Origin: Escherichia phage SmurfNell
Sequence record: OR896824.1
DNA: 64,000 nucleotides
Reading direction: 5' to 3' (one strand)
The position numbers and the translations under genes were made by a program. Shown in pieces: positions 23,750 through 64,000 of the stretch. The notes under the pieces are model-generated. The model saw only the letters and a list, made by a program, of their open reading frames with translations, ran no database searches and had not been told where the DNA came from. Positions within the stretch are counted from its first letter, which is position 1, and each line of letters opens with the position of its first letter.

Positions 23750-23779
23750 CTCCTCCAAGCAGAAATTTTAAAAATGTAC

Positions 23780-23809: not shown

Positions 23810-23839
23810 AGTTATATAAATTGATGAAGGAGTTAACGA

Positions 23840-24115: not shown

Positions 24116-24151
24116 CTGATATAGCACTGAGCAAGTTCTTTAAAATTTGAC

Positions 24152-24180
24152 TTGCTCAGTCCTTCAAATCTTGATATAAT
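24152..24180 (+). promoter_or_regulatory. early promoter driving a tRNA operon
   Basis: TTGCTC-17-TATAAT upstream of tRNA-Tyr. Confidence 0.55.
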
Positions 24181-24243
24181 AGTTATCTAATTTGGAAACA
24201 TATTTAAAAGTGTTTAAACTAGTATTTGAATATTTCTAAATAT

Positions 24244-24334
24244 GTTGGATTAGTATCGTAGAGGTAGCGAAGCAGACTGTAAATCTGCCGACTCGGAAGG
24301 GTCTCGGGTGGTTCGACTCCATCATCCAACACCA
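24244..24334 (+). tRNA. tRNA-Tyr (anticodon GUA), class II
   Basis: Acceptor GTTGGAT/ATCCAAC, anticodon loop CTGTAAA, long variable arm, T-loop TTCGACT, CCA. Confidence 0.7.
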
Positions 24335-24341
24335 AATTTAA

Positions 24342-24418
24342 GTCCTGTTAGACAAACTGGTAAAGTCACTACCCTTTCAAGGTAGGATTTGCGGGTTCGA
24401 TCCCCGCACAGGACGCCA
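24342..24418 (+). tRNA. tRNA-Glu (anticodon UUC)
   Basis: Acceptor GTCCTGT/ACAGGAC, anticodon loop CTTTCAA, T-loop TTCGATC, CCA. Confidence 0.75.
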
Positions 24419-24425
24419 ATTTCTG

Positions 24426-24503
24426 CATTCCTAGAGTGTTACTGGACAGCATGTCGGTCTCCAAAACCGTACGGTCTAGGTTCGAGTCCTAGTAGGTTTG
24501 CCA
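24426..24503 (+). tRNA. tRNA-like element, possible tRNA-Trp (anticodon CCA); acceptor stem unresolved
   Basis: T-arm CTAGG-TTCGAGT-CCTAG and encoded CCA at 24501-24503; candidate anticodon loop CTCCAAA; no canonical 5' acceptor strand found by eye. Confidence 0.3.
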
Positions 24504-24509
24504 ATATTT

Positions 24510-24584
24510 GCGACTTTAGCTGAGATGGATTAGCGTCTCCCTGAAAAGGAGAAGAGGTACGATCGTTACGTACAGGTTGCACCA
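24510..24584 (+). tRNA. tRNA-Phe (anticodon GAA) with atypical T-loop
   Basis: Acceptor GCGACTT/AGGTTGC, anticodon loop CTGAAAA, T-arm GTACG-ATCGTTA-CGTAC, CCA. Confidence 0.6.
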
Positions 24585-24595
24585 ATTTGAAGGAG

Positions 24596-24874
24596 ATGCT
24601 GATGCATCCTGAAAACTTCTTTATTTACTGTGCGGATAAGTCATTAAAACGCAGAATTAACAAAGTCTACCATTATCGTGCTAGTCAACAGCCTTATGTT
24701 TATGCTTTTGATGGAGAAACCATTCCACTAAAGCAGTTGGCATGTGATTACATGGTCTTGAAGAACTTTGATGAGACAAAGATCTCAAGCGTTCATAATC
24801 GACAGAATCCATTAACGTGGAAGTATAAGAAGAAAAAGAAAGGCATCAAATTTCTGAAAAATGTAGTTGCTTAA
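24596..24874 (+). CDS. hypothetical protein
   Basis: ATG at 24596 after GAAGGAG RBS, 12 nt after the tRNA-Phe CCA. Confidence 0.5.
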   Translation: MLMHPENFFIYCADKSLKRRINKVYHYRASQQPYVYAFDGETIPLKQLACDYMVLKNFDETKISSVHNRQNPLTWKYKKKKKGIKFLKNVVA

Positions 24875-24895
24875 ATCCTTAAAGTTCTGTATAAT
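24867..24895 (+). promoter_or_regulatory. early promoter (TTGCTT-17-TATAAT)
   Basis: consensus hexamers plus ATAAATTGAACTGGAGAAG box. Confidence 0.55.
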
Positions 24896-24924
24896 TATTA
24901 CATAAATTGAACTGGAGAAGCAAC

Positions 24925-25149
24925 ATGACAGAACAAGAATTAAAAGAACGTAAGCTGGTAATGCTTCGCTTACTAAACATTTTCTCTGGTATGGATGGTG
25001 GTATTGACTTCGTTCAACTACGCACTTTTGTAGAAGAAGCTGAAGGCGAATCTATTACTAAAATCCTTAAACATATGGGTTTATTACTAGACGCTGCTAA
25101 TGTAGCTACTGAATATAAATTAGAAGATCTACCGGAGCGTGTTTCATGA
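24925..25149 (+). CDS. hypothetical protein
   Basis: ATG at 24925 (track start 24907 is TTG). Confidence 0.45.
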   Translation: MTEQELKERKLVMLRLLNIFSGMDGGIDFVQLRTFVEEAEGESITKILKHMGLLLDAANVATEYKLEDLPERVS

Positions 25150-25337
25150 AAATGTTAGTTAAATTTAAGTGTTGTGGTTCTGAACATATTTTCACTCGTT
25201 ATAGAGAGTTTAAGATGTGTGAGTGTGGTAAGTCAGGCTATGATGCTGGAGATGGCTATTATGCTAGATCTATAGGACATTCTAAAGATCTAGAGTTTAC
25301 TAATCTCGAAAAGCAAGATAAATCGACCGTTGGCTGA
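25146..25337 (+). CDS. zinc-ribbon small protein
   Basis: CCGSEH...CECGKSGYD Cys pairs; 3' end overlaps the tRNA-Cys 5' end. Confidence 0.4.
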   Translation: MKMLVKFKCCGSEHIFTRYREFKMCECGKSGYDAGDGYYARSIGHSKDLEFTNLEKQDKSTVG

Positions 25338-25399
25338 ATGGCTTAGGCGGAGGCCTGCAAAACCTCCTTATGTGAGTTCGAATCTCATGCGGTCGTCCA
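25324..25399 (+). tRNA. tRNA-Cys (anticodon GCA)
   Basis: Acceptor CGACCGT/GCGGTCG, anticodon loop CTGCAAA, U73, T-loop TTCGAAT, CCA. Confidence 0.6.
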
Positions 25400-25406
25400 A
25401 ATTTTA

Positions 25407-25489
25407 GGGTCGTTAGCCAAGCGGTTTGGCGGTGGACTGTTAATCCATGTCGAAAGACAACGTAGGTTCGAATCCTACACGGCCCGCCA
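25407..25489 (+). tRNA. class II-type tRNA carrying a GUU (Asn-type) anticodon
   Basis: Acceptor GGGTCGT/ACGGCCC, anticodon arm GTGGA-CTGTTAA-TCCAT, 13 nt variable arm, G73, T-loop TTCGAAT, CCA. Confidence 0.55.
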
Positions 25490-25591
25490 TATTCTGTGTA
25501 GAGTTAAGTAAACCGGTAGCCAACCAGCTATCATTACTGATATTGAATTCAGTCACAGATACCATTTTCATTAATAACTGAGGAAATAGAT

Positions 25592-25777
25592 ATGACAACT
25601 CGTGCAATTGCTCGACTAGAAGCTGATCGTGATAGTCTGATTAATAATATTAAGGTTTGGGATCAAGAAATTGAAAACCAAAAACTGACATTAATTCAAG
25701 ATATGCAGCAACAGAATGCCCGTCGTGAAGCTCTAAAAGAGGTTGAGGAAGCTATCGAAAAACTCAAAACTGAGTAA
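25592..25777 (+). CDS. hypothetical coiled-coil protein
   Basis: 61 aa ORF with GAGGAAA RBS. Confidence 0.45.
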   Translation: MTTRAIARLEADRDSLINNIKVWDQEIENQKLTLIQDMQQQNARREALKEVEEAIEKLKTE

Positions 25778-25786
25778 ATAAATTAT

Positions 25787-25863
25787 GCGATCGGGGCTGG
25801 CTTGGTAATGGTACTCCCCTGTCACGGGAGAAAATGTGGGTTCGAATCCCATCGGTCGCGCCA
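25787..25863 (+). tRNA. tRNA-Asp (anticodon GUC)
   Basis: Acceptor GCGATCG/CGGTCGC, anticodon loop CTGTCAC, T-loop TTCGAAT, CCA. Confidence 0.75.
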
Positions 25864-25939
25864 ATTTTTGCAGGACGCTGGTATAGATAACCACCGCGTG
25901 GGAAGTGTCTATATTTAGAGCACTGCAAAACATAATAAT

Positions 25940-26015
25940 ACATCCATAGCTCAATGGTTAGAGCTACCGCCTCTTAAGCGGAGGGTTCTAGGTTCAAGTC
26001 CTAGTGGGTGTACCA
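25940..26015 (+). tRNA. tRNA-Lys (anticodon CUU)
   Basis: Acceptor ACATCCA/TGGGTGT, D-arm GCTC..GAGC, anticodon loop CTCTTAA, T-loop TTCAAGT, CCA. Confidence 0.6.
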
Positions 26016-26228
26016 AACATCAGAGTAGCGTGATGTACTGCAAAGACCCAAAGTCCGGGGTGGACTTCTTGATTCAAAGGAGCAGGCATTAATTATCATT
26101 CTAGCGTGGTGGAGAGGGGACACCAGCTTGCCGAGGGTAGAAGCTCGTTCGATTCGAGTGAAAGAATGGTTCTCGTAAATCCGCACAAGTGATAGCAGGT
26201 TCAAGTCCTGCCTAGATTGACTTATTAT

Positions 26229-26302
26229 GCGTTCGTAGTTAAAAGGTATAATTTTTGGTTGCCAACCAGAAGTTGAGGGTTCGATTCCCTCCGACCGCAC
26301 CA
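26229..26302 (+). tRNA. tRNA-Gly (anticodon GCC)
   Basis: Acceptor GCGTTCG/CGACCGC (one mismatch), anticodon loop TTGCCAA, T-loop TTCGATT, CCA. Confidence 0.65.
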
Positions 26303-26550
26303 AATTTAGGTTTCTGCTTCCTAGAGAACTGACGCCTAGATAAACAAGGCGATGAGTTTCCGGCCGGTTCTAGTCGCTGAAAATCCTCCCGACCAGGTAG
26401 GTGTAAGTAAACGAAAGTTTACTTATTAAGTAAGTCCGACACATCGGCGGGTGTGTTCTAGTACTTAAAGAAGGTCTCGCAAACTTTCTCGCTAGCATGA
26501 GTTGATAGCTCGGTGACTTACCTAATAAGTAAATTTATTAAAAAATGTAG

Positions 26551-26579
26551 TTGCTATTTAGCTTAATTCTCTGTATAAT
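26551..26579 (+). promoter_or_regulatory. early promoter driving a tRNA operon
   Basis: TTGCTA-17-TATAAT upstream of tRNA-Pro. Confidence 0.55.
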
Positions 26580-26611
26580 ATATTTTATAAAGTGAGTTAA
26601 CAAAGAATATT

Positions 26612-26689
26612 CTCCGTGTAGCTCAGTTTGGCCAGAGCGTTTCGTTTGGGGCGATAGGGTCGGGGGTTCAAATCCTCCCACGGAGACCA
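26612..26689 (+). tRNA. tRNA-Pro (anticodon UGG)
   Basis: Acceptor CTCCGTG/CACGGAG, D-arm GCTC..GAGC, anticodon loop TTTGGGG, T-loop TTCAAAT, CCA. Confidence 0.75.
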
Positions 26690-26695
26690 AACAAT

Positions 26696-26773
26696 TGCGG
26701 GTTAGATCTCTGGTAGAGATCGCTAGTCTCATAAGCTAGAAAGAGGTAGGTTCGATTCCTGCACCCGCTTCCA
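26696..26773 (+). tRNA. tRNA with CAU anticodon (second copy; initiator-like 1-72 mismatch)
   Basis: Acceptor TGCGGGT/ACCCGCT with U1xU72 mismatch, anticodon loop CTCATAA, T-loop TTCGATT, CCA. Confidence 0.65.
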
Positions 26774-26794
26774 ATTTAATAGAAGGATTTCTAA

Positions 26795-26959
26795 ATGAAA
26801 TTGTTTCGTTTAAAAGTAAGTGATATACGTTCTAGTAAAGATCGTAAGAAGTATCCACTAGCTCACTACGGTAAAGATGAAAACGAAGTGATGGCGGAAT
26901 TTGGTATTAATCATCCTTACTTGAAAATATACTCTATCAAAGAAGTATACATGTATTAA
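26795..26959 (+). CDS. small hypothetical protein (54 aa)
   Basis: ORF with AAGGA RBS between two tRNAs, below the track cutoff. Confidence 0.35.
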   Translation: MKLFRLKVSDIRSSKDRKKYPLAHYGKDENEVMAEFGINHPYLKIYSIKEVYMY

Positions 26960-26961
26960 AT

Positions 26962-27040
26962 AGATCGCTAGCTCAATTGGTTTAGCAGCACCCGGCTTTT
27001 AACCGGAAGGTTCTGGGTTCGAGTCCCAGGCGGTCTACCA
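26962..27040 (+). tRNA. tRNA-Lys (anticodon UUU)
   Basis: Acceptor AGATCGC/GCGGTCT, anticodon arm CCGG-CTTTTAA-CCGG, T-loop TTCGAGT, CCA. Confidence 0.75.
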
Positions 27041-27057
27041 ATTTAAAGGAATTTGTT

Positions 27058-27375
27058 ATGAATATTAACAAAGTTCTAGAAACAATATCAGAAATGTCTG
27101 GTAGAGCTGGAAAACGCTTTACTGAACTATGTATTAAAAATCAAAAAATACCAGAACATCAATGTCATTATTGTCGAGACTGTGAACAATACCATGAAAT
27201 GTGTGTGGTTGAAGATTGGATCTGGGATCAGATAAGAAAAGAACAATCCAAAGATATTGTTCTATGTTTTACTTGTATGGAACGACGTTTAGGACGTAAA
27301 ATTACTCTTAAAGATCTTAAACATGTTCCCTGTAACGCTCCTTACTTCATTGGTTTTAGAATGGAGAGATTTTGA
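27058..27375 (+). CDS. Cys-rich zinc-binding protein
   Basis: CHYCRDCEQYHEMC and CFTC motifs. Confidence 0.5.
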   Translation: MNINKVLETISEMSGRAGKRFTELCIKNQKIPEHQCHYCRDCEQYHEMCVVEDWIWDQIRKEQSKDIVLCFTCMERRLGRKITLKDLKHVPCNAPYFIGFRMERF

Positions 27376-27518
27376 TGATAATCTGGTTTTACTTAATGAA
27401 ACAAAAAGTCAAGCAGTACAACGTATTTTCTGCTGATTTTACTATTGGAATGTTCTTAGCAGGATTATGTGAGTTTCTGTTTGAAGCATTCTTAATCGGA
27501 AGTCTTTTGCTCGGTTAG
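27375..27518 (+). CDS. small membrane peptide (47 aa)
   Basis: Hydrophobic ORF overlapping the previous stop, below the track cutoff. Confidence 0.3.
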   Translation: MIIWFYLMKQKVKQYNVFSADFTIGMFLAGLCEFLFEAFLIGSLLLG

Positions 27519-27582
27519 TTTAATGGGAGAACCCCGTCTTTACACGGCGGTTGCGATAGTTCGATTCTATCACCGAGTACCA
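27509..27582 (+). tRNA. tRNA-Val (anticodon UAC)
   Basis: Acceptor GCTCGGT/ACCGAGT, anticodon arm CCGTC-TTTACAC-GGCGG, T-loop TTCGATT, CCA. Confidence 0.65.
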
Positions 27583-27601
27583 ATTAACTCAAAATAAGGA
27601 A

Positions 27602-27961
27602 TTGCAAATGCAATTATCAAGCAAGGTTCAAGGCTACTTCGGTCATGTAACAATGGAGTTCGCTATCTCTAAAGGTTGGGACTTCGAACAAGATTTAGCT
27701 GAGTTCTACAAAGATATTGATCTGAACGTACCGTACATGGGACTCTCTACTGGTCAGGAAATCACAGAAGCCGATGTATTCAAGGCAAGTCAAGGTGAGA
27801 TAACACCTAGTTTTGCCGAGTTCTGGTTAGGAATTACTCTGAAAGATGATGCACCGGATGGTGGTGTGGTTATGCAGAGTATGCACTCTGGAAGCTCTGA
27901 TTACCTTTTCGTTAGCGACGTTAAGGAAATACAAGAAATCTGCAAAAATGTACTTGCTTGA
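27602..27961 (+). CDS. hypothetical protein
   Basis: 119 aa acidic ORF. Confidence 0.5.
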   Translation: MQMQLSSKVQGYFGHVTMEFAISKGWDFEQDLAEFYKDIDLNVPYMGLSTGQEITEADVFKASQGEITPSFAEFWLGITLKDDAPDGGVVMQSMHSGSSDYLFVSDVKEIQEICKNVLA

Positions 27962-27982
27962 TACTTAATTTCTTGTTATAAT
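27954..27982 (+). promoter_or_regulatory. early promoter driving a structured leader and tRNA operon
   Basis: TTGCTT-17-TATAAT; transcript would start with the TTGATGAGGAGAAATCCTCATCAA hairpin. Confidence 0.55.
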
Positions 27983-28018
27983 ATTTATATAAATTGATGA
28001 GGAGAAATCCTCATCAAA

Positions 28019-28244
28019 GTTCACTAAGGTATTAGCTCGACCTAGGACTGGCTGCCAAAAAGCACGGTTGCAATTAGACCCCTAATGGCGGGGGATACTT
28101 TGCAAGAAGTTCTAGATTAGTCCACTAGATTCAGCGGCAACTGAATAGTGTATCGGGTTTGTGAAGAGCGGTTATCCTCTACTGGCTAATGTCTGAGGGT
28201 AATACGCACGCCGAGCTAATAGCCTTAGTAAACTTAAAGATTTT
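28019..28244 (+). other. non-coding leader between promoter and tRNA-Ala (possible small RNA)
   Basis: About 225 nt without an ORF, GC-balanced unlike the AT-rich spacers. Confidence 0.25.
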
Positions 28245-28318
28245 GGGGATATAGTTTAATGGTAGAACATCTGCTTTGCACGCAGAAGACGAGGGTTCAA
28301 CTCCCCCTTTCTCCACCA
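28245..28318 (+). tRNA. tRNA-Ala (anticodon UGC)
   Basis: Acceptor GGGGATA/TTTCTCC with G3-U70, anticodon arm TCTGC-TTTGCAC-GCAGA, T-loop TTCAACT, CCA. Confidence 0.6.
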
Positions 28319-28324
28319 AAATTT

Positions 28325-28400
28325 GGGGTCATAGGTTATTTGGTTAAACTTACTGCCTTGCAAGCAGTGGAACTCAGTTCAATTCTGAGTGACTCCACCA
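28325..28400 (+). tRNA. tRNA-Ala-like second copy (anticodon UGC)
   Basis: Acceptor GGGGTCA/TGACTCC with G3-U70, anticodon arm ACTGC-CTTGCAA-GCAGT, T-loop TTCAATT, CCA. Confidence 0.5.
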
Positions 28401-28413
28401 AATTAGAGGAAGC

Positions 28414-28875
28414 ATGGCTAGAACAGATATATTGGAAAGAAAGGATGAAATTCTTCTCTGGATAGAAGAAAATCAACCCAAAGCTGAAATTGCTAGAAGA
28501 TTACGCTGCAAAGTTGATACACTGAATACTTATCTGAAAAAGATGGGAATACAATATTCAGGTAACTCTGCTAGAAAAGGTTTTATACGTTCTGAGATAC
28601 AGGATGGGTATATTCCGGCAGTGAATTACTTTTACAAAAATAGCCCAATATCTTCTAGTCAGCTTAGAATAAAGATACTACGTGATGGCTTAAAACCTCA
28701 CAAATGTGAAAATTGTAATTTATCTGAATGGATGGGAGTTCCAATCCCCTTAGAGTTAGAGCATAAAGATGGTGATCATTATAATAATGAGTGGGATAAT
28801 TTAGCTTTATTATGTCCCAACTGTCATACACTAACAGATACACATTCAGGTAAGAATAAAGGAACATACGCGTGA
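28414..28875 (+). CDS. HNH endonuclease with N-terminal HTH, inserted in the tRNA island
   Basis: C-terminal HKCENCN...EHKDGDHYNNEWDNLALLCPNCH HNH motif. Confidence 0.75.
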   Translation: MARTDILERKDEILLWIEENQPKAEIARRLRCKVDTLNTYLKKMGIQYSGNSARKGFIRSEIQDGYIPAVNYFYKNSPISSSQLRIKILRDGLKPHKCENCNLSEWMGVPIPLELEHKDGDHYNNEWDNLALLCPNCHTLTDTHSGKNKGTYA

Positions 28876-28946
28876 TTGATGGAATTGGCATACATACCGT
28901 CCTTAGAAGTCGGGTTTTGAGGGTTCGAATCCCTTGTCACGCACCA
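28870..28946 (+). tRNA. tRNA with UAG anticodon (Leu-type), class I architecture
   Basis: Acceptor GCGTGAT/GTCACGC, anticodon loop CTTAGAA, 5 nt variable loop, A73, CCA; scaffold resembles the tRNA at 23314; 5' end overlaps the HNH stop. Confidence 0.5.
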
Positions 28947-28963
28947 ATTTTGTAGTAAACAAC

Positions 28964-29063
28964 GGAAGAGCAAATCGATAGGTGACGAAAACCGCTTGGA
29001 AAGTGGCTGACTTGTGAAAGCAGGCTTGAGAGTTCGAATCTCTCTTCTTCCGCCAAACAATAG
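28964..29063 (+). tRNA. tRNA-like element, about 100 nt, fold unresolved
   Basis: Complementary termini GGAAGAG/TTCTTCC, T-arm GAGAG-TTCGAAT-CTCTC, G73, CCA; too long for a standard tRNA. Confidence 0.3.
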
Positions 29064-29069
29064 AAGATA

Positions 29070-29151
29070 GGACGTAGTGGTACGTAACCGGTCTTGAAAA
29101 CCGGCCCGCTGTAGTGATACGGTGATGGTTCGACTCCATTATCTTCTGCCA
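29070..29151 (+). tRNA. tRNA-Ser (anticodon UGA), class II
   Basis: Acceptor AGAAGAT/ATCTTCT, anticodon arm CCGGT-CTTGAAA-ACCGG, long variable arm, G73, CCA. Confidence 0.7.
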
Positions 29152-29466
29152 AATCTTGAAGTATGCCGGAATCGGTAGACGGGGCTTCCTAAAGGGCGTA
29201 AGAGGAACATCCACTCCTCATAAGATACCCGAAAACGAGGCTGAGATAAATGGTCTATCTCGTGAAGGTTCAAGTCCTTCTGCTTCTTGATATTCAATGG
29301 CTCAAAGAGTAACGGTGCACCTTTCTAGAGAATTTTCTGGGCGAGAATCCAGAAGTAATCAACTAGTTGTTAGTGTGATGAGTTTCGGAGAGCCGCCACA
29401 ATTGAAGTCTTTAGAATGGGTATCGCCCTTTAGCCCCTCCGAAAGGGATAACTAGAGATTTCAATT

Positions 29467-29543
29467 GTGGCTATATCATAATTGGTTAATGATCCTGATT
29501 GTGAATCAGGCCTATGTGGATTCGAATTCCACTAGCCACCCCA
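29467..29543 (+). tRNA. tRNA-His (anticodon GUG)
   Basis: Acceptor GTGGCTA/TAGCCAC, anticodon arm CCTGA-TTGTGAA-TCAGG, C73, CCA. Confidence 0.75.
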
Positions 29544-29549
29544 AATATT

Positions 29550-29624
29550 GCGTCCTTATTTCAATGGAAAGAATGTAAAGCTACGAACTTTACGATCGGG
29601 GTTCGATTCCCTGAGGATGCACCA
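29550..29624 (+). tRNA. tRNA-Arg (anticodon ACG)
   Basis: Acceptor GCGTCCT/AGGATGC, anticodon arm GTAAAG-CTACGAA-CTTTAC, A73, CCA. Confidence 0.75.
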
Positions 29625-29648
29625 ATTAACTTATATAGGAAATAAAAT

Positions 29649-29849
29649 ATGGCTGATTTCTGCAAAGAATGCTCTATCGATATGTGGGGCAAAGATACTG
29701 GTGATCTTTCTGGTCTGATTACAGAAGCCGAAGTTAAAGAAGGCTATGGTGCTGTTGTAATCTGTGAAGGTTGTGGTATTATTCGTGTTGATCATAATGG
29801 TAAACGTCTAGAAGAACCAGATCCAATTGCCACGGTTCCTGTAGAATAA
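29649..29849 (+). CDS. zinc-ribbon small protein
   Basis: CKEC...CEGCG motifs. Confidence 0.45.
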   Translation: MADFCKECSIDMWGKDTGDLSGLITEAEVKEGYGAVVICEGCGIIRVDHNGKRLEEPDPIATVPVE

Positions 29850-29856
29850 AAATTAT

Positions 29857-29932
29857 TGGGATGTAGATCAATTGGCAGATCGTCGGCCTCTGACTCCGAA
29901 GGTTCCACGTTCGATCCGTGGCATCCCAGCCA
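29857..29932 (+). tRNA. tRNA-Gln (anticodon CUG)
   Basis: Acceptor TGGGATG/CATCCCA with U1-A72 and G73, anticodon loop CTCTGAC, CCA. Confidence 0.65.
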
Positions 29933-29938
29933 AATACT

Positions 29939-30014
29939 TGGAGAGTAGTGTAACGGTTAGCACAACGGCCTTTGACTCCGTTAATGGTAGGTTCGATTCC
30001 TCCTTCTCCAGCCA
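29939..30014 (+). tRNA. tRNA-Gln (anticodon UUG)
   Basis: Acceptor TGGAGAG/TTCTCCA with U1-A72 and G73, anticodon loop CTTTGAC, CCA. Confidence 0.65.
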
Positions 30015-30020
30015 ATTTAT

Positions 30021-30095
30021 GCGTGATTAGTTCAGTGGCTAGAATAACTGGCTTCCAACCAGTAGACACGAGTTCGACTCTCGTATCCCGCACCA
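30021..30095 (+). tRNA. tRNA-Gly (anticodon UCC)
   Basis: Acceptor GCGTGAT/ATCCCGC, anticodon arm CTGG-CTTCCAA-CCAG, T-loop TTCGACT, CCA. Confidence 0.7.
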
Positions 30096-30111
30096 AATAT
30101 AAGAAAACGTT

Positions 30112-30333
30112 ATGGACGTTTTTGAGTTTCGTAATAAAAACCCTAGTAGACGAGTTTTAATTATTGGTGAAACATATCGAGCTTATGAGCAAGAAGATGG
30201 TTCGGTTTTATTAAATGATGAAAAGCAAGGCTATAGTTTTCATCCAGAAGAAACATATGAGGAATTTCGTACTAAGTTTCTTTTACCAGACTGGCTAGCA
30301 ATAGCTGAGCAAAGAGAACCCGAAGATGGCTGA
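30112..30333 (+). CDS. hypothetical protein
   Basis: 73 aa ORF. Confidence 0.45.
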   Translation: MDVFEFRNKNPSRRVLIIGETYRAYEQEDGSVLLNDEKQGYSFHPEETYEEFRTKFLLPDWLAIAEQREPEDG

Positions 30334-30488
30334 TAATCTAAAGCTAAAGGTAGATAAACAAATGAAGTGCGTTGAGGTTGAGTTGGGTGAAGAACGTTTA
30401 AAACTCTCCTTCGAATTCTTACAACAGTTGGCTATGACAGTAATGTCTGATAAGTCTCCTGTATTTGAAAAAGAAATTCCGTTGAAAT
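30321..30488 (+). CDS. small hypothetical protein (55 aa)
   Basis: ORF overlapping the previous stop, below the track cutoff. Confidence 0.3.
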
Positions 30489-30500
30489 AACGGGTTTATT

Positions 30501-30575
30501 GCTCCTAAAGCATTGCTGGCGATGCAGTTGCCTTGTAAGCATCTGAACCGGGTTCGATTCCTGGTGGGAGCACCA
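30501..30575 (+). tRNA. tRNA-Thr (anticodon UGU)
   Basis: Acceptor GCTCCTA/TGGGAGC, D-arm GCAT..ATGC, anticodon loop CTTGTAA, T-loop TTCGATT, CCA. Confidence 0.7.
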
Positions 30576-30590
30576 AATTTAAAAATTCAT

Positions 30591-30620
30591 TTGCCTTCTC
30601 TCTTATTTCTTGTTATAATA
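30591..30620 (+). promoter_or_regulatory. early promoter (TTGCCT-18-TATAAT)
   Basis: consensus hexamers plus ATAAATTAATGAGAGGG box. Confidence 0.55.
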
Positions 30621-30649
30621 TTTATATAAATTAATGAGAGGGAAACCAA

Positions 30650-30943
30650 ATGAAACGTTATCTTTCTGTCGTGTTCCAAACTGGTGGTCAACGCTACACT
30701 TATGAATTTCCTGAGTCCTGGAAAATTAAAGAAGGTGATCAAGTTGTTGTATTAACACCTCGTGAAGGCTTCAAAGTAGTAACGGTTAAACAAGTATTTC
30801 CAAAAGATCACGAACCATCTAAGTCTATTCAGTACAAGATGATTCATGGTCTAGTTCGTAAAGTACCACGAACTGAGGTAGAAGTAGATAAGACTGGTGA
30901 AGCTAAATACCAGTATACTTCTTACTTAGATGAAATGATGTAA
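30650..30943 (+). CDS. hypothetical protein
   Basis: 97 aa ORF. Confidence 0.5.
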   Translation: MKRYLSVVFQTGGQRYTYEFPESWKIKEGDQVVVLTPREGFKVVTVKQVFPKDHEPSKSIQYKMIHGLVRKVPRTEVEVDKTGEAKYQYTSYLDEMM

Positions 30944-30944
30944 T

Positions 30945-31020
30945 GCTCTGATAGTTCAACAGGTTAGAACAGGCGACCGATAATCGTCAAATCTTGGTTC
31001 GATCCCAAGTCGGAGTACCA
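30945..31020 (+). tRNA. tRNA-Ile (anticodon GAU)
   Basis: Acceptor GCTCTGA/TCGGAGT, D-arm GTTC..GAAC, anticodon arm GGCGA-CCGATAA-TCGTC, T-loop TTCGATC, CCA. Confidence 0.65.
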
Positions 31021-31026
31021 AATTAT

Positions 31027-31099
31027 AGTTAGTTGGCAGAGCGGTTATGCACCTCCTTCATACGGAGCGACTACAGTGGTTCAAATCCACTACTAACTA
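31027..31099 (+). tRNA. tRNA with CAU anticodon (third copy), no encoded CCA
   Basis: Perfect acceptor AGTTAGT/ACTAACT, anticodon loop TTCATAC, T-arm AGTGG-TTCAAAT-CCACT; followed by ACTA rather than CCA. Confidence 0.45.
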
Positions 31100-31470
31100 C
31101 TAAACAGAGGATCAGGTAATTGTACCAGATCCTGCTGAGAAGAGAGTCCACATTCTATAAATGGCCGGGCGTGACAGCAGGAAGTAGACTGCAACTCCAT
31201 GCTATCCAGGAGTATAAATGTAGAAGCTAAGACTTTAGATAGCCATTGTCTTAGCGTGAGCAATCACGTAGTTGCAACAGACCTGGAAGATCGCAACGTT
31301 AAAATCAAAGTTCCAGTGCTTATTTATCTAATCGAGACCATCAATCTCACCGGAATGCTAGCACCCCAACAGTAGCTAGTGATTAGATAATAAGCAAGCC
31401 TGCCTTCCAGTTTTTATCTTGCTTCTGGGTTAACAAAAAGCTGAGCCAAATTCTAACATCAGGGAGATCT
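31100..31470 (+). other. structured non-coding region downstream of the tRNA island
   Basis: 370 nt without an ORF of 60 aa or more; higher GC than flanks; hairpins such as GGATCAGG...CCAGATCC. Confidence 0.25.
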
Positions 31471-56783: not shown

Positions 56784-58448
56784 ATGAATATTTCCGCAGA
56801 AAAACAAGCTCAAATTCTGAAAATGGCCGCAGATTTTAACTTCTACGGTAAGCGTTTACGCGCTACTAAATTGGAAGTTTGCGACGATATTTCAAAAGCT
56901 GTTTATGATACGCCGAAACATTCGACCGCAATTTGTGACTGGCTGGAAGCAAATAAGCCAGCGAAACCTAAAGCGGCAAAAGCTGAAAAGGCGATTAAAA
57001 ATGATGATCGCCCCGAAGCGGCGGGAATTGTTTCTAGTACCGTTGAACAATGGGAAGTTAAATCCGGTCGCCGTTTTATTCTAACGTCGATTCAAAATAA
57101 TACTTTCCCGCATAAAAACTTTTTAGCAAGTCTGGAAAAATTCGCTGAATATTGCGGCGCTGAATTGCTGATTAGTAAATTCATTTATAATAAAAATGGA
57201 TTCCAGAACGGGGAAGGGGCAAACGGTATTAAATACGATCCCGCATTTGATAAATATGTTTGTGATAAAAACGTATTTTTAAATAACCGCCGCTTTGCTT
57301 TCATGGCTGAAATTAACGTTTTACCAACGGCAGATTATCCGCTTTCAGGATTCGCAGAAACCGCCACGGCTTTAAATATCGAAGGTCTGGCAATTGGTCA
57401 CGCAAAAATTACCGCTGAAAGTGTTCCCGCGCTTAAAGGTGAAGTAGTGCGCCGTATGTATTCAACCGGAACGGCTACGCTTAAAAACTACATTCAGCAG
57501 AAAGCAGGTCAAAAAGCTGAGGCTTTACATAATTACGGCGCTTTGCTGGTGGAGTTCGACGACGACGGAGAATTTTATTGCCGCCAGCTTGAAACAATGG
57601 ATGAAAGCGGAATGTTCTATGATTTGAATGTTTGCGCTATGCCTACCGGATGTTTTGAAACGTCCGATCATGTTCTAGGCTTGCAATATGGCGATATTCA
57701 CGCCGAAAAACTAGATGATGATTGCGCCGTCGCTTCATGGGCTAGTGAAAACAGCTTGCTTGATATTCTTAAACCGAAATATCAATTTATTCATGATGTG
57801 CATGATTTTACATCGCGTAACCATCACAACCGCGCTAGTGGTGTATTCCTTGCGAAACAATACGCCGCCGGACGTGATAAAGTTATTGATGATCTTATTG
57901 ATACGGGTCGCGTATTAGAGTCTATGGAGCGTGATTTCTCTCAAACAATCATTGTGGAATCTAACCATGATTTAGCTCTTTCACGCTGGCTTGATGATCG
58001 TAACGCTAACATTAAAGATGATCCCGCAAACGCGGAATTGTATCACCGTCTAAACGCTGCGATTTACGCCGCTATTGCTGAAAAAGATGATACCTTTAAC
58101 GTGCTAGATTACGCCTTGCGTAGTGTCGCAGGTTGCGAATTTAACGCTATTTTCCTGACTACTGACCAGTCATTTAAAATCGCTGGCATTGAATGCGGCG
58201 TACACGGTCACAATGGCATTAACGGCAGTCGGGGCAATCCTAAGCAGTTTAAAAAGTTGGGACGCCTTAACACTGGTCACACTCACACGGCTAGCATTTA
58301 CGGCGGCGTTTATACCGCTGGCGTGGCGGGGTCGCTTGATATGGGCTACAACGTGGGCGCGTCAAGCTGGACGCAAACGCATTTAATTACCTATGCAAAC
58401 GGGCAACGTACTTTGATTGATTTCAAAAACGGTAAATTCTTTGCATAA
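56784..58448 (+). CDS. A1-like pre-early protein with metallophosphoesterase motifs
   Basis: 554 aa; GDIH, SNHD and GHTH motifs; size and context resemble T5 A1 (recalled as about 556 aa). Confidence 0.5.
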   Translation: MNISAEKQAQILKMAADFNFYGKRLRATKLEVCDDISKAVYDTPKHSTAICDWLEANKPAKPKAAKAEKAIKNDDRPEAAGIVSSTVEQWEVKSGRRFILTSIQNNTFPHKNFLASLEKFAEYCGAELLISKFIYNKNGFQNGEGANGIKYDPAFDKYVCDKNVFLNNRRFAFMAEINVLPTADYPLSGFAETATALNIEGLAIGHAKITAESVPALKGEVVRRMYSTGTATLKNYIQQKAGQKAEALHNYGALLVEFDDDGEFYCRQLETMDESGMFYDLNVCAMPTGCFETSDHVLGLQYGDIHAEKLDDDCAVASWASENSLLDILKPKYQFIHDVHDFTSRNHHNRASGVFLAKQYAAGRDKVIDDLIDTGRVLESMERDFSQTIIVESNHDLALSRWLDDRNANIKDDPANAELYHRLNAAIYAAIAEKDDTFNVLDYALRSVAGCEFNAIFLTTDQSFKIAGIECGVHGHNGINGSRGNPKQFKKLGRLNTGHTHTASIYGGVYTAGVAGSLDMGYNVGASSWTQTHLITYANGQRTLIDFKNGKFFA

Positions 58449-59274: not shown

Positions 59275-60009
59275 ATGAATCAAGTCAATATGAATATTAC
59301 CCGCACTTTCCCGCATATTTCCCGCGTTATGATTTGGGATTTAGACGGTACAATCATTAACTCAATGCACCGTGTCGGGCCTTGTTTTGATGATAATGGG
59401 AATTTAGATTTAAATAAATATTCCCGCGAAGCCTGCAAGCATGATTTAATTATGCAGGATTCTTTATTGCCATTGGTTGAATATATGCGCCAATGTATGA
59501 ATGATCCCAATACCTTAAACCTTATTTGTACCGCTCGCTTAATGGGTAAATCTGATTATTATTTCTTGCGTAAACAAAGTCTAAGAGGGCGCGGAAATAG
59601 TAATATTCGCGTATTTTCCCGCGATACATTACATAAATACTTTGAAGCTGGTAAGGTTAGCGAAATATATCACAGCAAAGACGCTGTATATAAGTCTTAT
59701 TACTTTGAACTGTTTAAACAGCTATATCCTAACGCTGATTTTACGATGATTGATGATCATAAAGGTGTATTATCAGCGGCGGCAAGTGCTGGATTTAAAA
59801 CGCTGGACGCTCAAGCCGTTAACGATATCCTATCAATCGGCGTAACATTGATCGGTGAAACCTTTATTGATGAATCGCTTGATGATGATAACGATTATCA
59901 ATTCCTAGCCGAACGTTTAAAAATGTGTTGGGAAGGTATGACCGAGGAAGAACGCGAGGAATATAGTACCACACCTCAACAATTCATTGATAAATTAAAA
60001 GTTGCCTAA
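59275..60009 (+). CDS. HAD-superfamily 5'-deoxynucleotidase-like (Dmp-like)
   Basis: HAD motif I IWDLDGTII near the N-terminus; 244 aa. Confidence 0.5.
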   Translation: MNQVNMNITRTFPHISRVMIWDLDGTIINSMHRVGPCFDDNGNLDLNKYSREACKHDLIMQDSLLPLVEYMRQCMNDPNTLNLICTARLMGKSDYYFLRKQSLRGRGNSNIRVFSRDTLHKYFEAGKVSEIYHSKDAVYKSYYFELFKQLYPNADFTMIDDHKGVLSAAASAGFKTLDAQAVNDILSIGVTLIGETFIDESLDDDNDYQFLAERLKMCWEGMTEEEREEYSTTPQQFIDKLKVA

Positions 60010-60166
60010 CAATTAAAAATAAAATAGTCACACTGTGTAATGATAACATGGTGTGACTATTAGCTTGCTAAGTAAGGGGCGGTAATGAGACTCATTCTCA
60101 TCTAGGGAACCTCTGGGCACACCTTCATGTGTAATCTTATGAGATTTGGCAAAAGTCAAATTAGCG

Positions 60167-60463
60167 CTATTTACGGACTGACTGCTTGAGAATAGACTGC
60201 CATAGAGGGTCAGTCTTAACAAGATTATTGATGTACTCAATAGCTTCATCAAATCTCATAAATCCTTCTGGAATTTCCGAAGACTTAGGAAAAACTTGTA
60301 ACATCTCTTGGGTGATACCCATCTTTTCAAGTTCTTCTTGAGTTATCTCAAACTTACCGAAAAACCGCCCGAATTCTTTCATGAGCTTCTCCTGTCTACC
60401 GGCTTGTCTCCTGATTCTGACATACGAAATCTCCTCCGCGATGCCCGAGATCCATCCGACCAC
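60167..60463 (-). CDS. hypothetical protein
   Basis: 98 aa ORF in a GC-rich patch. Confidence 0.35.
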   Translation of the reverse strand: MVGWISGIAEEISYVRIRRQAGRQEKLMKEFGRFFGKFEITQEELEKMGITQEMLQVFPKSSEIPEGFMRFDEAIEYINNLVKTDPLWQSILKQSVRK

Positions 60464-60616
60464 TCTCGCTCAAACTCCTCCCGTTTCTCCGCAAACCTCC
60501 GCTCCCTTTCCGAAAGCTCCCGCGATACTCCCGCAACATATTCACGATGCTTGTTAATAGCCCCGAGTGTTCCGAAGATTCCCGCAAGTACCCCGATAAT
60601 GAAGATAGCTACAAAG

Positions 60617-60811
60617 CTAAACATCTAATTCCCTCTCAAGTTGGTGAATACGTGCCCGATCATTACATTGGGAGTCCAGTAACTTATCCATATTAATATT
60701 AAGCTGGGTGACTTTATCCTCTAGCCGCTGTATACGGTTGCGATGTGAAGTCATATATCCAACAATCCAGACAAGCCATACTACAAGTGTAATAAATCCT
60801 AACCAATCCAT
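60617..60811 (-). CDS. small membrane protein
   Basis: N-terminal TM helix WLGFITLVVWLVWIVGY. Confidence 0.4.
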   Translation of the reverse strand: MDWLGFITLVVWLVWIVGYMTSHRNRIQRLEDKVTQLNINMDKLLDSQCNDRARIHQLERELDV

Positions 60812-60987
60812 TATTTGTCTCCCCGCAGCTTACGTTCTATACGGGCTAAGTGGTTATCTAGAATGCACTGCCCGATAATTACCACAACTAGTAAAGCAAT
60901 AATCACTACTTCCATTATAACCACCCCGCCATAGCTGCTAACCAAAAGAGTACAAAGATAAAGAATAACACAGTCCCGAATCCGAAA

Positions 60988-61302
60988 CTATTTATCCAAC
61001 TTTCGTACACTTCCCCGCGTCTGTTCTTTCTTCTGTTGTCGTCTGACATCTCTTTGCTTCTCCTGTAGTCCTGGTATTTGGAATATCCTAGCAATTGCAC
61101 GAACCATTATGACCGTCCCGATAAGATCCATTACTTCATCGAAGCCGGATTCTTCTAGTAAGAAGGATGTTCCCATCACATCTTCCATTGTATCTTCTAT
61201 GACGTCTTGAATGATTTCGTTAATTGCATCATGTATTGCTTTAGTCCTGGGATCTATTTCAAAGTTAACAGGTTCCTGAAAGGACTTTTCTTCATCTTGC
61301 AT
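60988..61302 (-). CDS. acidic hypothetical protein
   Basis: 104 aa ORF. Confidence 0.4.
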   Translation of the reverse strand: MQDEEKSFQEPVNFEIDPRTKAIHDAINEIIQDVIEDTMEDVMGTSFLLEESGFDEVMDLIGTVIMVRAIARIFQIPGLQEKQRDVRRQQKKEQTRGSVRKLDK

Positions 61303-61376
61303 TGTGTTTGCTACCTGTACCTCATCCCAGAAATAAAAATTTTTGTTTACTTCGAGATCTTTTTACTTTATACTAA

Positions 61377-61643
61377 TTACAAGTGACCAGATTGTTCTAG
61401 TTTAAATTTGCAATCGCCATATTTGAGATCAAACTGTGACAAATCCCACCACCCAAACTTAGTGCGTAACTGAGTTTTAGGGAATCGGTAGCCCACAGTA
61501 CGTGCTTCTCGAATATCTAAAGCATAGTGTTCTTCACCAACATGACCATAAGACTTCACATATGCCTTACAAAATGGCTCGGGAGCTGGCACACAACCCG
61601 TCAACACTACTGCTGCAACTACGATGGCTAGTAACTTTTTCAT
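61377..61643 (-). CDS. Llp-like lipoprotein (candidate receptor-blocking superinfection-exclusion protein)
   Basis: Signal peptide with lipobox AVVLTGC; divergently transcribed from the adjacent large tail-protein gene. Confidence 0.5.
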   Translation of the reverse strand: MKKLLAIVVAAVVLTGCVPAPEPFCKAYVKSYGHVGEEHYALDIREARTVGYRFPKTQLRTKFGWWDLSQFDLKYGDCKFKLEQSGHL

Positions 61644-61726
61644 AATCGTTCCTCTGTTTAATTTATAAATATATTATAGCAAAATAGAGGGATCTAAGCA
61701 AATACATTTTTAAAGAAGGAGATTGT

Positions 61727-63508
61727 ATGAGTTTTTTCGCAGGAAAATTTAGTGATGGTAAAACTGTATTATCTCTAAACGCTGCTAATGGTGGTGATAT
61801 AAATCAGCACTACTCTCCAAATACTAATAGTATCTTCCACTCAGATATGCCATTTGTCCTAGTTGATGGGACTTACGAGGCTGCTCTAGGTGATGCAGGT
61901 AATGGGTATTTTGTTACTCAGATGCCTTGGGATATTATAAACATTAAATCCAATGATCCTGGTAGAGTTATACTAACTGCTATTGAGATAAACGGTACTC
62001 ATAGAGGATTCCTCAATGGTACTCAATCTCAGGTTGGCCAGATGCTAAACTTTTTTGAAGATCAACCACGTGCTGGCGCTGAGTTAGCTCTAACTTCTGC
62101 TTTTGCAATCGGTGATAGTCTAGCTCATGGTACTTATACGTATAATGGTAGTCTTGGTCATGAGGAATCTATTGCTCGGCAAGGAACTGGAGGTACTTTA
62201 CTACAGTCTTCCGGTTTCCAGATCTATAGACCTGGTGGTGTTTCTGCTGGTGAAGCCATTGCCAGAGCCTGGGCTCTTATTGGGTTTCCTTCAGGAGTTT
62301 CAGTACCTCCACTAGATGCAGCAAATACAGATTATTGGGATCCTAACTGGCAGGCGCCTATTGGATCTGCTGGCAGAGGGCATGATCATTTTTATGTATG
62401 TAACTCTAATATACGTGGATTTGTAGGTAAAAAAGGGGAGATACCTTCTAATGTAAACATTAACTACCAATCCCCCTCCTTTCCTACTAAAGTATATGTT
62501 TGTAGGGGTTCTACGACTAATATGGCTGCGCAAGCCACTAGAAAGGTATATGTACAGGACTGGTATAACGTTACTCCTACTAAGGTTATTTGGTATGTGC
62601 TAAATCTGCGCTATTCTAATGGTAATATGGGAGTTTCTGGTAATCCATTTACTGGTTCTGATATCCTTATTTCTCCCTCTAATTTTACTATTAAAGGGGT
62701 TAGTTTACCAAATACAGGATATAAATTCATTAACCAGAATGCCTTTGGAAACTTAGGCTATCGCCCTGATATGGAGTATGTTGGTAATAATGCTGCATAT
62801 ACTGGAGTTTTTGGTGATAATACTGCACGATGTGAATTTATAGGCTCCAGTAATGGTGGATTGTGGTCACCCATTAACTATGGAGGTGCAGCTTCCCAAA
62901 TTAGCCTTTATAAATTTGGTGTAGGTAAACAATGGTATGTAGATACTAATACTAACTCCATTGGTAATGAACATGGACCTGTATGGAGTCCTAGTACAGT
63001 ACCTTTAAGGTTATTCCCTAGCAATGTTGTCAGTACTTATGTTGGGGATGACCTCAATCCATCTTATCCTGCAGCAGGTGATTACTACCAGCCTTTAGCA
63101 ACAGTCTGGTTAGGACTGCCTAACACCAACTCTACTATCATATTAACTACCGAAGTTATTATGGGCAACATTAACACTGCGGGACAACGTGTTAGTACAT
63201 ACAGTGGGCAGGCCTGGCGTGTACAAGGTAGACGCCAACAGAGTTACACTGCGGGGGATGGTATATTTCACCAAATCCTTACCCTACCACCTGGCTATCT
63301 AGTACCATATCACAGTACAACTTCCTATAGTTACACACAAACTTGGGCTAGTAGACCTAATGAGATGGCTTTTCGTAGAAATGGGTATATTTATACAGTA
63401 AAAAACCTTGGTAACGGTAACGTTGAATTAGGAGTTATTATCCATGCTGCCGAAGCAGCTGCTATCTTCTTACCAAGACTACGTGTAACAGTTCAACGCC
63501 TAACCTAA
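61727..63508 (+). CDS. putative receptor-binding tail protein (pb5/Oad-like by position)
   Basis: 593 aa Gly/Asn/Ser/Thr/Tyr-rich protein; assignment rests on synteny with the lipoprotein gene. Confidence 0.4.
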
Positions 63509-63519
63509 AGGAGGATATA

Positions 63520-64000
63520 TGGCAAATGATGTATTAGTTCCCGATCTCATGTCTCCCGAAGGCATGGATGTTATTGAAGCCTACTTACAGTGTGGTAGTG
63601 ATATTCCTGCCGCTGCTCGTAGTCTTGGGATGTCCGAGATTGCATTTCGTGATATAATGAATCGTGGAGAAGTTAAAAACTATCTCAACGATATATTTAT
63701 GGAAAGTGGCTTCCGTAATCGTGACCGTTTATTCGGAGTTCTTGACGAAGTTATCAAGCGTAAGCTGGAAGAACTTGAAGAAACTGGCATGGGTTCTGAC
63801 CAGGATATCATGGATATTCTCTGGAAGGCGCACAAGATGAAGATGGAAGAAATGAAAATGATGGTAGAACTGGAGAAAGTGAAGGCAGCAGCCCGTACTC
63901 CGGCTAACCAGACTAATATTCAGAATAATATTATTGCTGGAAGTGGTGACGAAAACTATATGAATCTTATTACCGCTCTAGCAGGAGGAGGTAAGAGATA
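63520..64000 (+). CDS. hypothetical protein, 3' partial (possible HTH DNA-binding or small terminase-like)
   Basis: Strong AAGGAGG RBS; runs off the window end. Confidence 0.3.

Follow-up and report, generated by a model that had tools for sequence, protein, structure and literature searches.

A divergent lipoprotein and receptor-binding protein gene pair, probably directed at BtuB, in a T5-like Epseptimavirus genome

The window analysed here, 64,000 nucleotides of Escherichia phage SmurfNell (OR896824.1), carries two divergently transcribed genes separated by an 83-bp spacer (61644–61726). On the minus strand, llp (61377–61643) encodes the predicted 88-residue precursor of a receptor-blocking (superinfection-exclusion) lipoprotein of the BF23/EPS7 (BtuB) type, an assignment based on the open reading frame, a match to phrog_1119 and identity to annotated proteins. 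On the plus strand, 61727–63508 encodes a 593-residue protein identified through phrog_4815 and the pb5 structures as a putative receptor-binding tail-tip protein (RBP; oad/hrs, a pb5 homologue) of the BtuB-binding cluster. The lipoprotein reading frame begins with MKKLLAIVVAAVVLTGC and contains the lipobox LTGC with its cysteine at position 17; the sequence itself, the Pfam profile LPAM_1 and the family alignment delimit a lipoprotein signal peptide and lipobox at residues 1–17 (61593–61643, minus strand; MKKLLAIVVAAVVLTG, then the C that follows the cleavage point).

An 88-residue LTGC lipoprotein divergent from a 593-residue protein is what the original prediction had described, and both reading frames were recovered at these positions. 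Its characterization of the larger product as rich in Gly, Asn and Tyr holds for Gly (11.5%) and Asn (8.3%) but not for Tyr, which lies outside the eight commonest residues. Annotations of both coding sequences exist in hundreds of phage records, and a synteny comparison found the same gene order in 100268_sal2, T5, SPC35 and HASG4. The PHROG E-values and the conserved synteny exclude a chance or artefactual pair of reading frames.

The window belongs to Epseptimavirus, the T5-like siphophages of Salmonella and E. coli. It contains A1, dmp and 30 tRNA genes, and positions 60000–64000 are 98.6% identical at the nucleotide level to Salmonella phage 100268_sal2 (Epseptimavirus). Across 40000–64000, identity to S113, the best match among the genomes listed, is at most ∼95%, suggesting a separate isolate or a species-level relative. 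The pair had been placed directly after a pre-early-like block. The identification of that block stands, with A1 matching phrog_1745 (E 7e-244) and dmp annotated in relatives, but the adjacency does not: dmp lies at 59275–60009, and ∼1.37 kb separates it from llp. In line with the annotation of phage 100268_sal2, this interval holds five small minus-strand reading frames, and a hydrophobic segment is present in three of them.

The spacer is 75% A+T and aligns with its counterparts in SPC35, HASG4, D1G and T5, with 76 invariant columns in an alignment of 150 that extends ∼24 nt into llp and 34 nt into the RBP gene. The equivalent region of T5 has two annotated promoters. A scan of the spacer with consensus promoter and terminator models reported neither, whereas direct inspection and pattern search located an extended −10 element and with it a predicted promoter-like element for llp (61673–61701, minus strand), comprising a −35 TTGCTT (61701→61696), a 17-nt spacer and the extended −10 TGcTATAAT (61681→61673). 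The consensus scan missed this element because its −35 matches at only three of six positions. It is followed by the Shine-Dalgarno sequence of llp, GAGGA (61654→61650), and falls broadly where, in the GenBank record of D1G, putative −35 and −10 sequences for llp are annotated in the spacer. We infer early, sigma-70-type expression of llp. The Shine-Dalgarno sequence of the RBP gene, AAGGAG, lies at 61716–61721.

Judged by its sequence, the 593-residue protein is a receptor-binding tail-tip protein and a true homologue of pb5. All 593 residues align to positions 1–650 of the profile phrog_4815, "receptor binding tail protein" (E 4e-278); a Pfam search with the protein returned no family. It is 99.8% identical to the protein of S132, from which it differs solely by N545D, and 99.7% identical to that of 100268_sal2. 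Identity falls to 90.2% for JNwz02, 89.7% for TrudiRoth, 80.8% for SPC35, ∼62% for Hrs proteins of the BF23 cluster (D1G and HASG4) and 30.8% for T5 pb5, with T5-type and other clusters at ∼29–31%. Similarity to pb5- or Hrs-type receptor-binding proteins had been proposed as a check on the original prediction, and both were found, the BF23-cluster Hrs proteins at the identity just given and the solved T5 pb5 (PDB 8b14_B/8a8c_B) at E 8e-45.

The HMMER alignment to pb5 covers residues 1–157 and 273–593 only, and the central part of the protein, residues 158–272 (62198–62542, plus strand), has no alignable counterpart there. The same stretch is the most variable within the BtuB cluster: compared with BF23-cluster Hrs, identity falls to 40–47% in the bins covering residues 151–210 and 241–270, and ∼25 of the ∼60 substitutions relative to JNwz02 and TrudiRoth lie inside residues 181–271. 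We regard residues 158–272 as a candidate receptor-specificity region, which may include contacts with BtuB.

Clusters of RBP sequences have been reported to predict the receptor, with FepA- and FhuA-type proteins forming clusters of their own (PMC8594841). Sequence comparison places the RBP of the window in the BtuB-binding (BF23 Hrs) cluster and not in the FhuA cluster, and BtuB, the vitamin B12 transporter, is almost certainly the host receptor of the phage. The expectation that the sequence would indicate the receptor was borne out in this way, through cluster membership together with near-identity to the S132 protein. BtuB dependence is published for S132 and TrudiRoth (PMC8594841), and JNwz02 no longer forms plaques on a btuB deletion strain, its adsorption dropping from 91% to 8% (PMC11014889). 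In addition, a 2026 preprint describes 23 BtuB-binding Demerecviridae whose RBP is ∼30% identical to pb5, in agreement with the value measured here. The copy of the PDB that we searched contained neither a BtuB-Llp nor a BtuB-Hrs structure.

Because the central region of the RBP has diverged, the protein might bind not BtuB but another receptor, such as FepA or a porin specific to Salmonella, which would make the lipoprotein a relic or a mismatched partner. The high variability of residues 158–272 inside the cluster is compatible with such a switch, as is recombination between llp and the RBP gene, which clearly occurs: relative to TrudiRoth, 200 of 593 codons differ in the RBP gene and two of 88 in llp, and the same breakpoint has been described for DT57C versus BF23 (Golomidova et al., PMC4728585). 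However, a single residue separates the RBP from that of BtuB-dependent S132, and the more divergent cluster members TrudiRoth, JNwz02, SPC35, DT57C, BF23 and phiR2-01 are all BtuB users (PMC4728585, PMC8594841, PMC8624392, PMC11014889). The RBPs of the separate FepA and FhuA clusters (PMC8594841) are only ∼29% identical to it. A receptor other than BtuB is, in our assessment, highly improbable.

The lipoprotein points in the same direction. It matches phrog_1119 (E 1.2e-23), and at 100% identity it recurs as the annotated receptor-blocking protein of S132, JNwz02, TrudiRoth (Bas30) and 100268_sal2, and in at least 16 further phage records among those listed. Its identity to the BF23-type Llp of SPC35, HASG4 and D1G is 67–69%, with the C-terminal 30 residues identical, and the D1G protein is annotated as similar to the BtuB-blocking lipoprotein of BF23. 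A deep protein search retrieved 10 clusters only, each with an identity of 64% or more. The family alignment shows no variation at Gly16, at Cys17 (Cys1 in mature numbering) or at Cys9 and Cys62 of the mature protein. The only Pfam match for either protein, LPAM_1 on residues 1–17, scores 18.6 bits, just below the 20-bit cut-off. The mature protein is predicted to begin with an acylated Cys17, which is followed by Val. Under the established +2 sorting rule for lipoproteins, Val rather than Asp at this position makes sorting to the outer membrane the expected outcome.

These similarities place the lipoprotein in the BF23-type (BtuB-blocking) Llp family. Experiments have shown that the Llp of BF23 blocks BtuB, and cloned llp of DT57C, whose product differs from that of BF23 by one residue, reduced BF23 and DT57C plating by a factor of more than 100 and left T5 unaffected (PMC4728585). 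Roughly one residue in three differs between the window protein and this assayed BF23/DT57C allele, with most of the differences in the N-terminal half of mature Llp; in the literature, we found no report of an exclusion assay on an Epseptimavirus Llp allele. A search for lipoproteins beside the RBPs of other clusters, in GSW6, KEY, Riker and Eos, found none.

The relation to the Llp of T5 is of another kind. The original prediction had compared the locus with the llp-oad arrangement of T5, and the comparison is apt in that the pair is divergent, the RBP is a pb5 homologue and the spacer aligns with that of T5, but what is present is the BF23/EPS7 (BtuB) version. As for the lipoprotein, the likeness covers arrangement and class of role and does not extend to the sequence of the mature domain. 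BLASTP between the two gave E 0.059, with the match confined to the signal peptide region. T5 Llp matches phrog_1119 (E 1.1e-19) over the whole profile, as the window Llp does, and we considered whether this common match signals kinship. It was rejected as driven by the signal peptide: hhalign aligned only the first 28 columns, comprising the signal peptide and the second cysteine, and when the signal peptides were removed nothing in the mature domains aligned (probability 0.4%). With nothing left to align, we dropped the idea that the published description of the two Llp types as non-homologous is wrong. The window Llp is a functional analogue of T5 Llp and not a detectable homologue.

That shared profile is named "Cor superinfection exclusion protein", the label also used in RefSeq, and taken at face value it would make the lipoprotein a FhuA blocker of the Cor or T5-Llp type and the phage a FhuA user. 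The three-cysteine framework, which is alike in the window protein and T5 Llp (PMC9586334), could be read the same way. Yet the profile match stems from the signal peptide, and a PDB sequence search with the window Llp gave no match at E ≤ 10 even though T5 Llp is present there (8a60_B, 7qjf_A). Moreover, the partner RBP belongs to the BtuB cluster and is ∼30% identical to pb5, expression of BF23-type Llp gave no protection against T5 (PMC4728585), and phages with an identical Llp require BtuB. A FhuA-directed role is very improbable, the least probable of the readings weighed here.

The AlphaFold2 (AF2) model of the window Llp (pLDDT 82.6) has a five-stranded beta structure and a C-terminal helix. 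Foldseek found no match to it in the PDB at E ≤ 0.001, and T5 Llp was absent among the best 50, for what is a small protein represented by a model only; its weak PDB neighbours, none significant, are Tudor/chromo-like barrels. Against BFVD, the best neighbour and only strong match was the receptor-blocking protein of phiR2-01 (TM 0.82). Because AF2 is reported to be inaccurate for free T5 Llp (PMC9586334), a fold mismatch based on the model is weak evidence. T5 Llp has a Cys11–Cys58 disulphide (PMC9586334), and Cys9 and Cys62 of the mature window protein are placed similarly.

Taken together, we interpret the locus as the Epseptimavirus host-recognition and lytic-conversion module, in which a BtuB-binding RBP is paired with a BtuB-blocking Llp, and we give this reading a probability of roughly 0.88. 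Gene identities, homologies and arrangement come from the present analysis, BtuB dependence and exclusion from published work on near-identical or related proteins. The RBP, probably a monomer at the tip of the central tail fibre, would bind the TonB-dependent transporter BtuB irreversibly and so trigger DNA ejection. Llp would be exported, acylated at Cys17 and delivered to the outer membrane, where it would sit in the inner leaflet, bind BtuB and make it unusable by the phage itself and by other BtuB-dependent T5-like phages. The expected consequences are superinfection exclusion and the sparing of progeny from inactivation on the debris of lysed cells.

Following the crystal structure of T5 Llp with FhuA, Llp would likely jam BtuB from the periplasm, binding its periplasmic face or plug and allosterically changing the extracellular loops required by the RBP. 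As the mature protein has no detectable sequence homology to T5 Llp, and T5 Llp is absent among its 50 best PDB fold matches, extending this reverse allostery from FhuA to BtuB is by analogy only. An independently evolved protein of different fold could block BtuB otherwise, by masking its surface or by binding the Ton box or barrel rim with no remodelling of the plug. The mature domain with no detectable homology to T5 Llp, the beta-rich model with its barrel-like weak neighbours and the published view of the two types as non-homologous are all consistent with this option. On the other hand, the two lipoproteins share size class, lipobox, outer-membrane sorting signal and a similar cysteine framework that may join the N- and C-terminal regions, and they occupy the same genomic slot beside a conserved control region. 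Plug allostery is common to FhuA and BtuB, both TonB-dependent transporters, and on that ground the mechanism has been argued to be general; the reported inaccuracy of AF2 for free T5 Llp weakens the argument from fold (PMC9586334). We consider a different blocking mode unlikely, if still a serious alternative to plug jamming. Equally tentative is the broader suggestion that the BtuB-type Llp evolved independently and converged on silencing a TonB-dependent transporter through a so far unseen mode of binding.

Among known systems, a divergent llp adjacent to the RBP gene is the hallmark of the module (PMC8624392). Relative to the hrs/llp pairs of BF23, DT57C, SPC35, EPS7 and phiR2-01, the window proteins are 62–81% (RBP) and 67–69% (Llp) identical, with the Tequintavirus (BF23/SPC35) alleles differing in the N-terminal half of mature Llp and in central and C-terminal patches of the RBP. 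The oad (pb5)/llp pair of T5, known from structures of FhuA-pb5 (8A8C/8B14) and Llp (8A60/7QJF), shares the architecture, the conserved spacer, the conserved RBP N-terminus MSFFAGK... and a lipoprotein of the same size class with a lipobox, the cysteine framework and the same biological role. It differs in its receptor, FhuA, in a pb5 only ∼30% identical to the window RBP and unalignable over residues 158–272, and in an Llp whose mature part shows no detectable sequence similarity and, by comparison of a model, no fold match.

The module, its arrangement, the receptor class and the exclusion function are already known from publications, and GenBank contains annotated proteins that match both products exactly or almost exactly; found in many Salmonella and E. 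coli phages, the pair is an ordinary one. In practical terms, the phage is predicted to need BtuB, btuB mutants to resist it and infected cells to exclude other BtuB-dependent T5-like phages, predictions that are useful for the design of phage cocktails.

The Cor lipoproteins of T1, phi80, N15 and HK022 are small outer-membrane lipoproteins encoded beside host-recognition genes, and they mediate superinfection exclusion by inactivating the TonB-dependent transporter FhuA. The name that the window Llp family shares with them in RefSeq and PHROGs is a profile-cluster label only. In the Foldseek search against BFVD, the window Llp also matched, weakly, the exclusion protein of a small siphovirus, CEC_Kaz_2018 (E 2.5e-3, TM 0.46).

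The divergent lipoprotein and tail-protein genes form a module of already known biology, with BtuB (the outer-membrane vitamin B12 transporter) as the assigned receptor and a receptor-blocking lipoprotein (Llp) of the BF23/EPS7 type; both proteins are identical or near-identical to annotated GenBank entries. The llp gene occupies 61377-61643 on the minus strand (88-aa ORF; N-terminus MKKLLAIVVAAVVLTGC, a lipoprotein signal peptide with lipobox LTGC) and the gene for the receptor-binding tail-tip protein (RBP, 593 aa) occupies 61727-63508 on the plus strand, a divergent pair located exactly as in the original prediction. The spacer between them is 83 bp long and 75% A+T.

The window is the genome of a T5-like phage. 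Positions 60000-64000 match 420 phage records and share 98.6% identity with Salmonella phage 100268_sal2 (Demerecviridae, Markadamsvirinae, Epseptimavirus), and 40000-64000 are ∼95% identical to phage S113. Thirty tRNA genes lie on the plus strand at 18790-31100, among them three for tRNA-Met and two each for Ala, Gln, Gly, Lys, Leu, and Arg; large tRNA arrays are typical of T5-like phages. A1 (56784-58448; phrog_1745, E 7e-244) and dmp (59275-60009), both upstream on the plus strand, confirm the pre-early block, but the pair does not directly follow it as had been proposed: ∼1.37 kb separates dmp from llp. This interval contains five small minus-strand ORFs downstream of and co-directional with llp (60167-61302; ORF170-174 in the annotation of 100268_sal2), three of which carry one hydrophobic segment each, and which may be co-transcribed with llp. 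T5 has equivalent small ORFs (T5.159-162), arranged in a row and each with a single TM segment, in the interval from llp to the right terminal repeat.

The RBP matches phrog_4815 (“receptor binding tail protein”) over its full length (E 4e-278). Against solved T5 pb5 (8b14_B, 8a8c_B; E 8e-45), residues 1-157 and 273-593 were aligned, while the central residues 158-272 found no counterpart in the same search. Its composition is rich in Gly (11.5%) and Asn (8.3%) as described, but not in Tyr, which falls outside the eight commonest residues. Relatives among phage records sort into identity bands; in direct pairwise alignments, identity is 99.8% for S132 (sole change N545D), 99.7% for 100268_sal2, 90.2% for JNwz02, 89.7% for TrudiRoth, 80.8% for SPC35, ∼62% for the BF23-cluster hrs products of HASG4 and D1G, and 30.8% for T5 pb5. 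According to the BASEL paper (PMC8594841), the RBPs of this subfamily fall into three clusters, each predictive of a receptor (BtuB, FepA, or FhuA). A 2026 preprint describes 23 BtuB-binding Demerecviridae as sharing an RBP ∼30% identical to pb5. JNwz02 forms no plaques on a btuB deletion strain, where its adsorption drops from 91% to 8% (PMC11014889). Because the RBP is one residue from a characterized protein, that of S132, we assign BtuB as the receptor with high confidence on sequence grounds, in keeping with the expectation that this locus would reveal it.

Llp matches phrog_1119 over its full length (E 1.2e-23). It is 100% identical to proteins annotated as “receptor-blocking” or “superinfection exclusion” in S132, JNwz02, TrudiRoth, and 100268_sal2 and, among the matches listed, in at least 16 further phage records; 133 records reach ≥ 99% identity. 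Its counterparts in SPC35, HASG4, and D1G are 67-69% identical, with the last 30 residues unchanged and the differences confined to the N-terminal half of the mature chain; the annotation of D1G likens its Llp to the lipoprotein with which BF23 blocks BtuB. BF23 Llp blocks BtuB, and cloned DT57C llp, whose product is one residue away from BF23 Llp, lowers the plating of both BF23 and DT57C by a factor of more than 100 but leaves T5 unaffected (PMC4728585). A search of 5.8 billion proteins returned ten Llp clusters, all at least 64% identical and thus a narrow family, in which Gly16, Cys17 (the acylation site), Cys25, and Cys78 are invariant. Under the Lol sorting rule, lipoproteins with a +2 residue other than Asp go to the outer membrane; the +2 residue here is Val, so outer-membrane localization is predicted. 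We classify Llp as one of the BF23-type proteins, an analogue of T5 Llp in function rather than a demonstrated homologue.

The layout matches that of T5, where oad and llp diverge across ∼80 bp, with two annotated promoters, just upstream of the terminase genes; 76 of 150 alignment columns covering the spacer and first RBP codons are invariant between T5 and BtuB-type phages. The mature lipoproteins show 18-21% global identity, and BLASTP similarity (E 0.059) is confined to the signal peptide region. A PDB sequence search with Llp gave no match, although T5 Llp is present there (8a60_B, 7qjf_A). T5 Llp also matches phrog_1119 over its full length, which we ruled out as a sign of relatedness: hhalign aligned no more than columns 1-28, which span the signal peptide and end at the second Cys, and with signal peptides removed it aligned nothing (probability 0.4%). 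At the sequence level, the mature proteins are not detectably related. An AF2 model (pLDDT 82.6; five beta strands and a C-terminal helix) matched no PDB fold at E ≤ 0.001, with T5 Llp absent from the best 50 matches listed. In a viral library its sole strong neighbor was the receptor-blocking protein of BtuB-dependent phage phiR2-01 (TM 0.82), followed weakly by a small-siphovirus exclusion protein (E 2.5e-3, TM 0.46); the modeled fold also argues, weakly, against relatedness. These findings agree with the description of T5 and BF23 Llp as non-homologous within a retained module architecture (PMC4728585). The one resemblance is a similar placement of cysteines, Cys9 and Cys62 (mature numbering) being invariant here and Cys11-Cys58 forming a disulfide in T5 Llp (PMC9586334).

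In the proposed mechanism, the RBP at the central fiber tip would bind BtuB and trigger DNA ejection, as established for pb5-FhuA; Hrs can functionally substitute for pb5 (PMC9586334 and others). A putative llp promoter on the minus strand (-35 TTGCTT, 61701-61696; 17-nt spacer; extended -10 TGcTATAAT, 61681-61673), followed by a GAGGA ribosome-binding site, lies in the portion of the spacer to which the annotation of D1G assigns putative llp signals. In T5, expression of Llp is early (Decker et al. 1994, as cited in PMC8624392). Llp would then reach the outer membrane, where it would inactivate BtuB as a receptor for BtuB-dependent T5-like phages. T5 Llp binds a non-native FhuA plug from the periplasm, with loops EL7 and EL8 folded inward, a mechanism its authors suggest may be general for TonB-dependent transporters (PMC9586334). 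Llp could instead block BtuB by a different binding mode, a reading that the unrelated mature sequences leave room for and the similar cysteine placement does not favor, and which we consider the less likely; a T5-like periplasmic mechanism is proposed by analogy only.

The RBP gene differs from that of TrudiRoth at 200 of 593 codons (139 synonymous, 61 non-synonymous) and from that of JNwz02 at 198, whereas llp differs at 2 and 7 of 88 codons, respectively, all synonymous. This jump in divergence at the spacer is a sharp boundary that implies recombination between llp and the RBP gene, and the two genes are thus not strictly co-inherited; a like boundary is reported between DT57C and BF23 (PMC4728585). 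Amino-acid differences concentrate at residues 181-271, inside the stretch unalignable to pb5, and 421-510. Compared with the other-cluster RBP of phage GSW6, residues 1-30 are 83% and 31-60 are 63% identical, versus 3-50% (mean ∼23%) in other 30-aa bins, and the MSFFAGK start is common to T5 pb5. This suggests a lineage-conserved N-terminus (61727-61906, residues 1-60), possibly serving tail attachment, and an exchangeable receptor-specific body. Conservation between T5 and the BtuB-type phages extends over 61644-61760, covering the control region and the opening ∼30 nt of the RBP gene, although the flanking llp genes are non-homologous; this stretch could be a recombination site for module exchange.

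The T5-like phages GSW6 (Salmonella), KEY (Erwinia), Riker_ER52 (Klebsiella), and Eos, with RBPs of other clusters (∼28-34% identical), have no lipobox ORF within ∼1.2 kb upstream of the RBP gene, so a receptor-blocking lipoprotein may be missing from this site in these phages. The immediate neighbor of the GSW6 RBP gene is a homologue of the 104-aa ORF at 60988-61302. For phage Cit2, the RBP is given as 96.9% identical to “T5” and also 67-73% to BtuB-type RBPs (PMC12980165), which is incompatible with the ∼30% identity that we measured between pb5 and RBPs of the BtuB type. Cit2 Llp is BF23-type (68% identical to the present Llp), and the inferred FhuA receptor may derive from a mislabeled reference. 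Two records carry unexpected hosts: MG065642.1 (Campylobacter phage A148) shows 99.2% nucleotide identity over 95% of 60000-64000, and OR846838.1 (Listeria phage LM 4-11-1) encodes an RBP 66.9% identical to the present one. Both carry this Enterobacteria T5-like locus, and the probable cause is wrong host labels or mixed preparations.
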